IMG/VR virus record: IMGVR_UViG_2534681657_000006
Source: a virus
Taxonomy: Duplodnaviria > Heunggongvirae > Uroviricota > Caudoviricetes
Direction: 5' to 3' (one strand)
DNA: 4,506 nt
Of the stretch, positions 830-4,506 are shown piece after piece. The notes under the pieces are model-generated. The model made no database searches and was not told the DNA's origin. It saw nothing but the letters and a program-made list of their open reading frames with translations. How positions within the stretch are numbered: position 1 is the stretch's first letter; each line of letters opens with the position of its first letter. A program made the position numbers and the translations under genes.

Positions 830-1900
830 ATGGGTAAAGGCAGCAGTAAGGGGCATACCCCGCGCGAAGCAAAGGACAACCTGAAGTCCACGCAGTTGCT
901 GAGTGTGATCGATGCCATCAGCGAAGGGCCGGTTGAAGGTCCGGTGGATGGATTAAAAAGCGTGCTGCTGAACAGTACACCGGTGCTGGACAGTGAGGGG
1001 AATACCAACATCTCCGGTGTCACGGTGGTGTTCCGGGCAGGTGAGCAGGAGCAGACACCGCCGGAGGGATTTGAATCCTCCGGCTCCGAGACGGTGCTGG
1101 GTACGGAAGTGAAATATGACACGCCGATCACCCGGACCATCACGTCGGCAAACATCGACCGTCTGCGCTTTACCTTCGGTGTGCAGGCACTGGTGGAAAC
1201 CACCTCAAAGGGGGACAGGAATCCGTCGGAAGTCCGCCTGCTGGTTCAGATACAACGTAACGGTGGCTGGGTGACGGAAAAAGACATCACCATTAAGGGC
1301 AAAACCACTTCACAGTATCTGGCCTCGGTGGTGGTGGATAACCTGCCGCCGCGCCCGTTTAATATCCGGATGCGCAGGATGACGCCGGACAGCACCACAG
1401 ACCAGCTGCAGAACAAAACGCTCTGGTCGTCATACACCGAAATTATCGATGTGAAACAGTGCTACCCGAACACGGCACTGGTCGGCGTGCAGGTGGACTC
1501 GGAGCAGTTCGGCAGCCAGCAGGTGAGCCGTAATTATCATCTGCGCGGGCGTATTCTGCAGGTGCCGTCGAACTATAACCCGCAGACGCGGCAATACAGC
1601 GGTATCTGGGACGGAACGTTTAAGCCAGCATACAGCAACAACATGGCCTGGTGTCTGTGGGATATGCTGACCCATCCGCGCTACGGCATGGGGAAACGTC
1701 TTGGTGCGGTGGATGTGGATAAATGGGCGCTGTATCTTATCGGCCAGTACTGCGACCAGTCAGTGCCGGACGGCTTTGGCGGCACGGAGCCGCGCATCAC
1801 CTGTAATGCCTGGCTGACCACCAGCGTAAGGCGTGGGATGTGCTCAGTGATTTCTGCTCTGCGATGCGCTGTATGCCGGTATGGAACGGGCAGACGCTGA
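830..1900 (+). CDS. J: J segment 1 (frame 2); J-like translation ends near 1822, and the last 25 codons before the stop at 1900 are out-of-frame readthrough
   Basis: ORF-track ORF with an SD-supported ATG. The J-like sequence is read through ...RITCNAWLTT, then becomes SVRRGMCSVISALRCAVCRYGTGRR. Confidence 0.6.
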   Translation: MGKGSSKGHTPREAKDNLKSTQLLSVIDAISEGPVEGPVDGLKSVLLNSTPVLDSEGNTNISGVTVVFRAGEQEQTPPEGFESSGSETVLGTEVKYDTPITRTITSANIDRLRFTFGVQALVETTSKGDRNPSEVRLLVQIQRNGGWVTEKDITIKGKTTSQYLASVVVDNLPPRPFNIRMRRMTPDSTTDQLQNKTLWSSYTEIIDVKQCYPNTALVGVQVDSEQFGSQQVSRNYHLRGRILQVPSNYNPQTRQYSGIWDGTFKPAYSNNMAWCLWDMLTHPRYGMGKRLGAVDVDKWALYLIGQYCDQSVPDGFGGTEPRITCNAWLTTSVRRGMCSVISALRCAVCRYGTGRR

Positions 1901-2454
1901 CGTTCGTGCAGGACCGACCGTCGGATAAGGTGTGGACCTATAACCGCAGTAATGTGGTGATGCCGGATGATGGTGCGCCGTTCCGCTACAGCTTCAGCGC
2001 CCTGAAGGACCGCCATAATGCCGTTGAGGTGAACTGGATTGACCCGAATAACGGCTGGGAGACGGCGACAGAGCTTGTTGAAGATACGCAGGCCATTGCC
2101 CGTTACGGTCGTAACGTCACGAAGATGGATGCCTTTGGCTGTACCAGCCGGGGGCAGGCACACCGCGCCGGGCTGTGGCTGATTAAAACGGAACTGCTGG
2201 AAACGCAGACCGTGGACTTCAGCGTGGGTGCTGAAGGGCTTCGCCATGTACCGGGCGATGTCATTGAAATCTGCGATGATGACTATGCCGGTATCCGCAC
2301 CGGTGGGCGCGTGCTGGCGGTGAACAGCCAGACCCGGACGCTGACGCTCGACCGTGAAATCACGCTGCCATCCTCCGGTACCACGCTGATAAGCCTGGTT
2401 GACGGAAGTGGAATCCGGTCAGCGTGGAGGTTCAGTCCGTCACCGACGGCGTGA
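1840..2454 (+). CDS. J: J segment 2 (frame 1); J-like reading extends upstream to about 1822 (QRKAWD precedes the nominal GTG at 1840) and ends near 2412
   Basis: The frame 1 translation QRKAWDVLSDFCSAMRCMPVWNGQTLTFVQDRPSDK... continues the J protein with no SD or start of its own. The nominal start is an internal GTG. Confidence 0.55.
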   Translation: MLSDFCSAMRCMPVWNGQTLTFVQDRPSDKVWTYNRSNVVMPDDGAPFRYSFSALKDRHNAVEVNWIDPNNGWETATELVEDTQAIARYGRNVTKMDAFGCTSRGQAHRAGLWLIKTELLETQTVDFSVGAEGLRHVPGDVIEICDDDYAGIRTGGRVLAVNSQTRTLTLDREITLPSSGTTLISLVDGSGIRSAWRFSPSPTA

Positions 2455-2666
2455 AGGTGAAAGTGAGCCGTGTTCCTGACGGCGTTGCTGAATACAGCGT
2501 GTGGGGGCTGAAGCTGCCGACGCTGCGCCAGCGCCTGTTCCGCTGCGTGAGTATCCGTGAGAACGACGACGGCACGTATGCCATCACCGCCGTGCAGCAT
2601 GTACCGGAAAAAGAGCCATCGTGGATAACGGGGCGCACTTTGACGGCGACCAGAGCGGCACGGTGA
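2424..2666 (+). CDS. J: J segment 3 (frame 3); J-like reading from about 2412 (NPVSVEVQ...) to about 2615
   Basis: Frame 3 encodes [68 protein letters not shown], continuous with the J sequence. The nominal start is an internal GTG. Confidence 0.55.
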
Positions 2667-4306
2667 ATGGTGTCACGCCGCCAGCGGTGCAGCACCTGAC
2701 CGCCGAAGTCACCGCAGACAGCGGGGAGTATCAGGTGCTGGCGCGCTGGGACACGCCGAAGGTGGTGAAGGGCGTGAGCTTCATGCTTCGCCTGACCGTG
2801 GCAGCGGATGACGGCAGTGAGCGGCTGGTCAGCACGGCCCGGACGGCGGAAACCACATACCGCTTCACACAACTGGCGCTGGGGAACTACAGGCTGACAG
2901 TCCGGGCAGTAAATGCGTGGGGGCAGCAGGGCGATCCGGCATCGGTATCGTTCCGGATTGCCGCACCGGCAGCGCCGTCGCAGATTGAGCTGACACCGGG
3001 GTATTTTCAGATAACCGCCACGCCGCATCTTGCGGTTTATGATCCGACGGTACAGTTTGAGTTCTGGTTCTCGGAAAAGCGGATTGCGGATATCAGGCAG
3101 GTTGAAACCGCAGCCCGCTATCTTGGCTCGGCGCTGTACTGGATAGCTGCCAGTATCAATATCAAACCGGGCCATGATTATTATTTTTACGTTCGCAGTG
3201 TGAACACCGTTGGCAAATCGGCATTCGTGGAGGCTGTTGGTCAGCCGAGTGATGACGCATCCGGCTATCTGGATTTTTTCAAAGGCGAGATAGGGAAAAC
3301 CCATCTGGCTCAGGAGCTGTGGACGCAGATTGATAACGGTCAGCTTGCGCCTGACCTGGCTGAAATCAGGACGTCCATTACGGATGTCAGCAATGAAATC
3401 ACGCAGACCGTCAATAAGAAACTGGAAGACCAGAGTGCGGCAATTCAGCAGATACAGAAGGTTCAGGTTGATACAAATAATAACCTGAACAGCATGTGGG
3501 CTGTGAAGCTGCAGCAGATGCAGGACGGACGCCTTTATATCGCGGGTATTGGTGCCGGTATTGAGAACACCCCTGACGGCATGCAGAGTCAGGTGCTGCT
3601 GGCGGCAGACAGGATTGCGATGATTAATCCTGCGAATGGCAACACAAAGCCGATGTTTGTTGGGCAGGGCGATCAGATATTCATGAACGACGTGTTCCTG
3701 AAACGCCTGACGGCTCCCACCATTACCAGCGGCGGTAATCCTCCGGTATTTTCCCTGACACCGGACGGGTGGCTGACGGCGAAAAATGCCGATATCAGCG
3801 GTAACGTGAATGCGAACTCCGGGACGCTCAACAACGTCACGATTAACGAGAACTGTCGGGTTCTGGGAAAACTGTCCGCCAACCAGATTGAAGGCGATCT
3901 CGTTAAAACAGTGGGCAAAGCTTTCCCCCGGGACTCCCGTGCACCGGAACGGTGGCCATCAGGGACCATCACCGTCAGGGTTTATGACGATCAGCCGTTT
4001 GACCGGCAGATTGTTATTCCGGCGGTGGCATTCAGCGGCGCTAAACATGAGAGGGAGAATAACGATATTTATTCGTCATGCCGCCTGATAGTACGGAAAA
4101 ACGGTGCTGAAATTTATAACCGTACCGCGCTGGATAATACGCTGATTTACAGTGGTGTTATTGATATGCCAGCTGGTCGCGGCCACATGACGCTGGAGTT
4201 TTCGGTGTCATCATGGCTGGTAAATGACTGGTATCCCACAGCAAGTATCAGCGATTTGCTGGTTGTGGTGATGAAGAAAGCCACCGCAGGCATCAGTATC
4301 AGCTGA
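2621..4306 (+). CDS. J: J segment 4 (frame 2, same frame as segment 1); J-like reading from about 2615 ([11 protein letters not shown]...) to stop at 4306; contains FN3-like repeats and the distal putative receptor-binding region
   Basis: Longest uninterrupted ORF (561 aa). Two segments, [63 protein letters not shown] and [26 protein letters not shown]...[23 protein letters not shown], look like fibronectin-type-III-like beta-sandwich repeats as reported for J-type central fibres. The nominal start is an internal GTG. Confidence 0.6.
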
Positions 4307-4325
4307 ATTTTATAACCCATATACG

Positions 4326-4352
4326 GGCGCCAGAAATGGCGCCTTTTTTATT
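4326..4352 (+). terminator. Rho-independent terminator downstream of J
   Basis: Perfect 7-bp GC-rich stem GGCGCCA (4326-4332) and TGGCGCC (4337-4343) around a GAAA tetraloop, immediately followed by TTTTTTATT (4344-4352). It starts 20 nt after the J stop. Confidence 0.7.
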
Positions 4353-4362
4353 GCAGAAAAGC

Positions 4363-4368
4363 GAGAGG
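4363..4368 (+). promoter_or_regulatory. Shine-Dalgarno for lom-like gene (GAGAGG), 5 nt upstream of the ATG at 4374
   Basis: GAGAGG at 4363-4368 with ATG at 4374-4376. Confidence 0.55.
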
Positions 4369-4373
4369 TAATT

Positions 4374-4506
4374 ATGCGTAAAGTTTGTGCAGCCATTTTG
4401 TCCGCAGCCATCTGTCTGGCCGTATCCGGTGCGCCTGCATGGGCGTCTGAGCAGCAGGCCACACTGAGCGCAGGGTATCTTCATGCCCGTACGAACGCTC
4501 CCGGCA
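4374..4506 (+). CDS. lom: Lom-like outer-membrane protein (Ail/Lom/PagC family), N-terminal part with signal peptide; 3' end lies outside the window
   Basis: ATG 4374 with SD, open to the window end. The translation MRKVCAAILSAAICLAVSGAPAWA|SEQQATLSAGYLHARTNAPG has a classic Sec signal peptide (basic n-region, hydrophobic core, A-W-A cleavage motif). Position directly downstream of J behind its own terminator is the lambda lom position. Only 44 codons are visible, so family assignment rests mostly on synteny. Confidence 0.7.
   Translation, partial: MRKVCAAILSAAICLAVSGAPAWASEQQATLSAGYLHARTNAPG

Follow-up and report, generated by a model that had tools for sequence, protein, structure and literature searches.

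How is a gene expressed that starts 21 nt behind a terminator-like hairpin in the tail region of a phage, and what would its product do? The question is raised by positions 4307–4506 of the DNA analysed here, a stretch of 4,506 bp (hereafter the window) that is the entire contig APXG01000018.1 of the NCBI draft assembly GCA_000356445.2. We consider it very probable that this region is the J–lom junction of a lambda-like Escherichia coli prophage, in which a hairpin (T1) closes the tail-tip gene J and lom is expressed mainly by late read-through transcription. The gene itself is no novelty: its first 44 codons are those of an ordinary, widely annotated lambda-type lom behind J, a textbook arrangement that is already known, and the labels 'Ail/Lom family outer membrane beta-barrel protein', 'Lom' and 'terminator' (the last in phage Ayreon) are already public. 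The J–lom junction is also found in the majority of complete E. coli genomes, and taken by itself it is of little consequence. What the locus does offer is a cassette with no room for a promoter, a point of relevance to the lom promoter, which has yet to be mapped, and to the recent proposal of late self-exclusion, and, as a by-product, a clean map of the edges of that cassette.

The nearest relatives of the window were all E. coli prophages, at ∼98% identity, in agreement with the initial annotation, which had proposed a temperate element in an enterobacterial host. The whole window was matched in 4,674 of 5,426 complete E. coli genomes, in a median of three places per genome, and 184 phage records, mostly of Stx-converting and other lambdoid coliphages, matched the J–lom junction; in 173 the match covered at least 80% of its length. 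Exact copies of 4307–4506 occurred in 17 of 80 viral contigs, and over its last 1,500 nt the window shows no difference from a prophage in E. coli 602354 (NZ_CP025847). Because the window is a complete contig, lom is cut after codon 44 and its own record allows no extension. The contig ends are probably boundaries of repeats common to several paralogous lambdoid prophages, which would explain why the gene is cut off.

Upstream of the junction the window carries, all on the + strand, the 3′ part of tail gene K (1–224; ORF 3–224, a C40/NlpC-P60 peptidase that aligns to the 'C40 family peptidase' of NZ_CP025847), a complete gene for the 215-aa tail assembly protein I (122–769; Pfam Lambda_tail_I, 83.6 bits) and the tail tip/host-specificity gene J (830–4306; Pfam FNIII-A_GpJ, Ig_J, Ig_J_second, Phage_Tail_Tip and Ig_GpJ_C), the stop codon of which is a TGA at 4304–4306. 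K overlaps the start of I, as it does in lambda. In the closest annotated relatives the order on this strand is K-I-J-lom-side tail fibre (stf), which is also the order of lambda, and the window stops before stf. With J upstream in the window and stf downstream in those relatives, the lambda lom arrangement that had been read from the window is the one found. The whole window had no match in Rfam at E ≤ 1.

The ATG of lom lies at 4374–4376, and a Shine–Dalgarno (SD) motif, GAGG (4365–4368), ends 5 nt upstream of it, so that the gene does have the SD of its own that had been claimed for it. This SD, together with a separation of 67 nt from J, indicates that lom is translated independently of J. 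The 44 codons present encode MRKVCAAILSAAICLAVSGAPAWASEQQATLSAGYLHARTNAPG, which divides into a Sec-type signal peptide, MRKVCAAILSAAICLAVSGAPAWA (codons 1–24, 4374–4445, + strand), and the start of the mature Ail/Lom beta-barrel, SEQQATLSAGYLHARTNAPG (codons 25–44 and one further base, 4446–4506, + strand; Pfam Ail_Lom), at which point the contig ends. By a rule-based assessment the signal peptide has an MRK n-region (charge +2), a 16-residue hydrophobic core with a mean Kyte–Doolittle value of 2.31 (against −0.68 over the next 20 residues), an A-W-A motif before SE, after which signal peptidase I is predicted to cut, and no lipobox, all as expected of the cleavable signal peptide first proposed. 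When mature Ail and OmpX from the PDB are aligned to a full-length relative, the alignment begins only at its residue 26–29, which lends independent support to residues 1–24 being a signal peptide.

Membership in the Ail/Lom family, for which a Pfam search had been suggested as the check, is apparent from the 44-aa fragment alone (PF06316, Ail_Lom: 69.1 bits against a cut-off of 23, E = 5.8e-19, positions 1–44 of 199). The fragment is identical to residues 1–44 of WP_001462065.1, an 'Ail/Lom family outer membrane beta-barrel protein' that matches the same model at 415.3 bits (positions 1–199 of 199) and OMP_b-brl at 81 bits; at 199 aa this relative falls within the predicted 170–210, while the window's own ORF has only 44 codons. 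An intact 199-aa lom ORF was present in 79 of 80 related loci. Among PDB entries the full-length relative matched 'Outer membrane protein lom' (9wso, E = 4e-49), followed by Ail (3qra) and OmpX (1qj8) at E of about 1e-19, and the product would thus be an 8-stranded outer-membrane beta-barrel. The NCBIfam OmpX and Rck-type models gave 99.7 bits against a cut-off of 176 and 111.6 against 258; matches below these equivalog cut-offs mark the protein as a Lom-type member and not as an OmpX or Rck orthologue. The chromosomal 8-stranded beta-barrels Ail of Yersinia and OmpX of E. coli are homologous to it over the whole mature domain, while Lom is phage-borne and has longer loops (a 199-aa precursor against 171 and 185 positions in the OmpX and Rck-type models).

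Between J and lom lies T1, an intrinsic-terminator-like element at 4325–4352 on the + strand. Its stem-loop (4325–4344), GGGCGCCA-GAAA-TGGCGCCT, has eight pairs (six of them G-C), a 4-nt loop and a folding energy of −15.1 kcal/mol, and is set off from the J stop by an 18-nt spacer. The T-run TTTTTTATT occupies 4344–4352; this tail, TTTTT-ATT with six T, reaches 4352, and T4344 is at once its first letter and the last base of the stem. From the window alone the evidence that T1 exceeds chance is modest: the 68-nt J–lom intergenic region folds with a z-score of −2.49 relative to shuffled sequences, and a scan of the window returned two terminator-like sites where 0.7 ± 1.0 were expected.

Comparative evidence, in the form of covariation, settles that T1 is more than chance. 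The 70 nt upstream of lom were collected from 76 related viral contigs and reduced to 16 distinct sequences, of which 15 were aligned. The eight-pair stem was 100% paired in all 15 of these variants, with two pairs compensated on both sides (G-C to A-U and C-G to U-A) and one G-U intermediate; the percentage paired and the covariation score were reached by none of 500 shuffles, and all slid controls scored lower. T1 is, on this alignment, a real element under selection for structure. Lambda has a stem at the same place, CGTCCG-GGAA-CGGGCG followed by TTTTATTAT, that is unrelated to the window's and lies in a less stable hairpin region (−8.9 against −15.1 kcal/mol). The hairpin structure is therefore conserved and its sequence is not, as expected of a functional terminator or 3′ hairpin. 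Since no T-run follows the hairpin on the − strand, T1 is a one-way element of the + strand only. With a GC-rich stem-loop, a T-run and a conserved structure it has the make-up of an intrinsic (Rho-independent) terminator, and would accordingly terminate transcription; in the Ayreon record both T1 and a second hairpin, T2 (described below), are annotated as 'terminator'.

Two smaller features of this stretch may be recorded here. The T1 loop (4332–4337) occurs either as AGAAAT or as its reverse complement ATTTCT with the stem unchanged (the window compared with loci L008, L009, L010, L018 and L025), which points to an inversion of the loop, either by strand switching or by recombination within the palindrome. 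Two ORFs on the − strand (4299–4484 and 4310–4462; 61 and 50 aa) overlap T1 and the start of lom and are probably spurious.

The sequence that follows T1 is a 21-nt leader, GCAGAAAAGCGAGAGGTAATT (4353–4373, + strand), which contains the SD and forms the left end of the lom cassette; among 76 related loci only one had a substitution in it, and that a single one. Phages ev017, Lambda_2G7a and HannyBb are without lom and match the window only as far as 4352. In such phages (loci L004 1595–1620, L005 and L006) J is followed by the T1 stem-loop, TTTTTTATT and then directly by TGTGGAGTGAATATG, the SD and start of the side-tail-fibre gene. Used as a query, this lom-less junction was uninterrupted in 22 phage records, and against lom-bearing phages it was split into a left match that runs to position 164 and a right match that begins at 159, both inside the T-run. 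In lom-bearing phages the leader, lom, a 27-nt spacer and T2 are interposed before the same GTGGGGTGAATATG. T2, which lies outside the window and is known from its relatives, is a hairpin of eight pairs (GCCCGCCGG-TTCA-GGCGGGC plus TTTTTT; −16 to −18 kcal/mol).

As judged from the loci compared, these alignments show lom to be an accessory cassette, made up of the 21-nt leader, the gene and T2, that lies behind T1 and ahead of where the side-tail-fibre gene begins, with both edges in terminator T-runs. Terminator T-runs may be the joints at which cassettes such as lom are gained and lost. The retention of T1 in phages without lom makes it a part of J's 3′ end, and this changes the reading of the junction in two respects. 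The initial annotation had placed a strong terminator at 4326–4352 between J and lom; the hairpin is there to within 1 nt (4325–4352), but it is not specific to lom. It had also described lom as independently terminated, which holds in so far as relatives have T2 behind the gene, but the terminator inside the window is J's. Nor is the cassette always self-terminated, since T2 follows lom in about three-quarters of the related loci and in the remaining quarter or so the sequence behind lom is another one and shows no obvious terminator. In loci L059, L066, L071 and L056 a 685-aa ORF begins ∼150 nt downstream of lom. The moron-like, accessory status proposed for lom is upheld by its presence in some lambdoid phages and its absence from the same site in others, the 22 phage records with J-T1-stf and no lom.

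Presence or absence at a fixed site is what a classical moron would display, and such a reading would go further than an accessory cassette: lom would be an autonomous gene with its own constitutive promoter, expressed mainly from the prophage as a lysogenic-conversion factor (adhesion or serum resistance), and T1 would insulate it from the tail operon. In addition to the polymorphism, it can draw on the gene's own terminator downstream in relatives, and on a 41%-identical Ail/Lom gene that occurs in 933W-type phages in another context, behind a 90-nt AT-rich spacer. The morons of HK97 and HK022 (Juhala et al. 2000; Cumby et al. 2012, PMC3594210) are likewise extra genes present in some related phages at one intergenic site in the tail region, with a terminator directly downstream. 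They differ from lom in two points: lom has no detectable promoter, and its GC content is the same as that of its neighbours.

A promoter between the terminator and the start codon had been anticipated for lom, and here the anticipation fails. From the end of T1 to the ATG there are only 21 nearly invariant nucleotides, among them the SD, and with its left edge at 4353 the cassette brings no promoter along. Simple consensus scans, which would miss weak, sigma-S or activator-dependent promoters, found no sigma-70-like site on the + strand in 3800–4506, no sigma-70 consensus in the J-3′/lom region of a relative (locus L001 7900–9200) and none within 270 nt upstream of lom, either here or in lambda. 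A lenient scan of 4100–4400 and of the lambda equivalent returned a sole weak site, ATGACG-16-CATCAT, 160 nt inside J, which was rejected as unconvincing and not conserved. Upstream of the same Lom allele the J 3′ ends are 40–100% identical to the window's, so that a promoter inside J would not be conserved. The GC content of lom equals that of J (0.560 and 0.568, with 0.534 for stf), and lom carries no compositional signature of horizontal transfer. Neither a promoter of its own (by consensus scans only) nor a base composition different from its surroundings was thus found for lom.

Published expression data point both ways, and the lambda literature on lom expression in the prophage state is inconsistent. 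Transcription of lom in lysogens has been reported (PMC1151598), and Chen et al., together with reviews, place lom among the few lambda genes that lysogens express (PMC7067206, PMC1151598, PMC3594210), but lom went undetected in a lysogen in one array study, which called its promoter uncharacterised (PMC2147009). The lom orthologue of phi24B is reported to be expressed equally in lysogens and in induced cells (PMC3342100); such uncoupling from induction would fit an independent promoter better than pure late read-through. In the account given in PMC12366544, Liu et al. (2013) found Lom to be low in lysogens and to rise strongly late in infection. Taken with the anatomy of the junction, these data leave an independently transcribed moron unproven, and we regard the classical moron as a somewhat unlikely description of this gene.

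Read-through late transcription is the best-supported route for lom. With no space for a promoter behind T1 and none detected further upstream, lom would be transcribed chiefly as part of the Q-antiterminated late message. From the anatomy of the junction and the biology of lambda, Q-modified polymerase would ignore both T1 and T2, lom would be co-expressed with the tail genes, and large amounts of Lom would be made late in infection. Stray upstream transcription by unmodified polymerase would be stopped at T1 in the repressed prophage, and any basal expression of lom would come from leakage or from an unmapped, non-consensus start. Going by what holds for the family, Sec would export the product, signal peptidase I would cut it after Ala24, and BAM would place it in the outer membrane as a small 8-stranded beta-barrel of ∼175 mature residues.

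At the cell surface, to judge from the lambda literature, Lom may promote adhesion, lower the adsorption of lambda-type phages to phage-carrying or phage-producing cells, or both. A role of lambda Lom in adhesion to epithelial cells is credited to Vica Pacheco 1997, as cited in PMC3594210. Expression of Lom gave strong protection against lambda-vir and not against T7, which its authors interpreted as possible self-exclusion (PMC12366544). The allele of the window is only 43% identical to lambda Lom, and for this reason adhesion or self-exclusion is here a hypothesis. It is conceivable, if rather doubtful, that lom is a late gene without a promoter of its own, gated by T1 and made in quantity only through Q read-through, and that it serves the phage as an anti-adsorption protein rather than the host as a virulence factor. 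Anti-adsorption has already been proposed for lambda Lom (PMC12366544); if the idea is right, what would be new is its extension to a 43%-identical allele and the architecture with no promoter of its own.

A matching of Lom to the receptor-binding end of J was considered and rejected. The same Lom allele (≥ 90% identical) stands beside J receptor-binding domains that are only ∼40% identical to the window's (loci L007, L073, L080 and L088), and the diversity of the J tips found next to one allele speaks against a close fit of Lom to the receptor-binding domain of its own phage. The C-terminal end of J in the window (3899–4303) is itself 44% identical to the lambda J tip. A lead towards a 'Pas sRNA' was likewise dropped, as the match in the preprint was to 'Lomsadze' in the reference list alone.

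The J of this contig is in a condition that raises a further question, namely whether the locus still belongs to a working prophage. J is broken into four ORFs (830–1900, 1840–2454, 2424–2666 and 2621–4306) by three 1-nt deletions, near 1821, 2411 and 2614, relative to intact relatives, none of them in a long homopolymer. No such deletion was found in 5,426 complete E. coli genomes, IMG/VR, the GTDB representatives or the gene index, exact-pattern scans over one of the deletion sites returned nothing from the viral and genome contig collections, and the frameshift-specific J product occurs, among the collections searched, in this contig alone. The three frameshifts may mean that the prophage is defective or that the contig is poorly assembled. 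On the first of these readings the element would be a decaying, non-inducible prophage with J inactivated, and the lom fragment would be carried along, perhaps inactive here; the broken frame and the uniqueness of the deletions both speak for it. The deletions, however, sum to −3, so that J is back in its original frame within ∼800 nt and keeps to it for the C-terminal 561 aa. The contig is moreover a short, repeat-bounded piece of a draft, and the deletions are no less likely to be consensus errors made where prophage repeats were collapsed. The 1,500 nt shared with NZ_CP025847 include T1 and the start of lom and are the same in intact prophages, and the exact copies of 4307–4506 in other viral contigs also tell against decay. 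We therefore think it unlikely that the locus is a relic. An annotator can take the region as the mark of a lambdoid prophage in an E. coli draft genome, one whose J is either damaged or mis-assembled.

It is quite improbable, finally, that T1 is mainly a stability or processing element at the 3′ end of the J message, or a recombination hot spot, and not a transcription stop: although it lies within an operon transcribed in lytic growth by terminator-resistant polymerase, is retained even where the tail-fibre gene directly follows J, coincides in its T-run with the breaks in lom cassette homology and has a loop found in both orientations, all the parts of an intrinsic terminator are present (a GC-rich stem, then six T in a run), on one strand only, the tail on the − strand not being T-rich, and such roles are in any case compatible with termination.

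The E. coli lambdoid prophage locus of WP_001462065.1 (NZ_CP025847) has the same T1, leader, SD, K-I-J-lom-stf order and residues 1–44, and the window differs from it only in ending at codon 44 and in the three 1-nt deletions in J. The junction is 94–98% identical to those of named phages with a 'Lom', among them JLK-2012, YYZ-2008, PhiR5_1 and many Stx1- and Stx2-converting phages. Lambda lom (NP_040601, 206 aa) occupies the same place between J and the side-tail-fibre gene, and there too a hairpin plus T-run is followed by GAGAGGT, an ATG, a signal peptide and a protein of the same Pfam family; the J–lom spacer is 61 nt in lambda and 67 nt in the window, and lambda Lom is 7 residues longer than the window-type protein. 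Chain C of PDB 9wso, at 206 aa, has the same length as lambda Lom; J is not among the chains of that entry, and a literature search found no paper describing it.

The lom genes of lambda and of the window type (compared as L003 5550–5680 and L001 8940–9070) are nearly identical in their last ∼35 nt, the spacer and T2. A shared 3′ end in two genes whose products are only 43% identical points to a recombination joint inside the gene. In the short-tailed Stx2 phage PA18 (933W type; L093 2243–3030) the 41%-identical Ail/Lom gene stands in a context without J, and downstream of it is a terminator of its own with a tail, TTTTTATTGC, that resembles the tail of T1 in the window. The occurrence of an Ail/Lom gene in a 933W-type context indicates that members of the family are mobile cargo in more than one type of phage.
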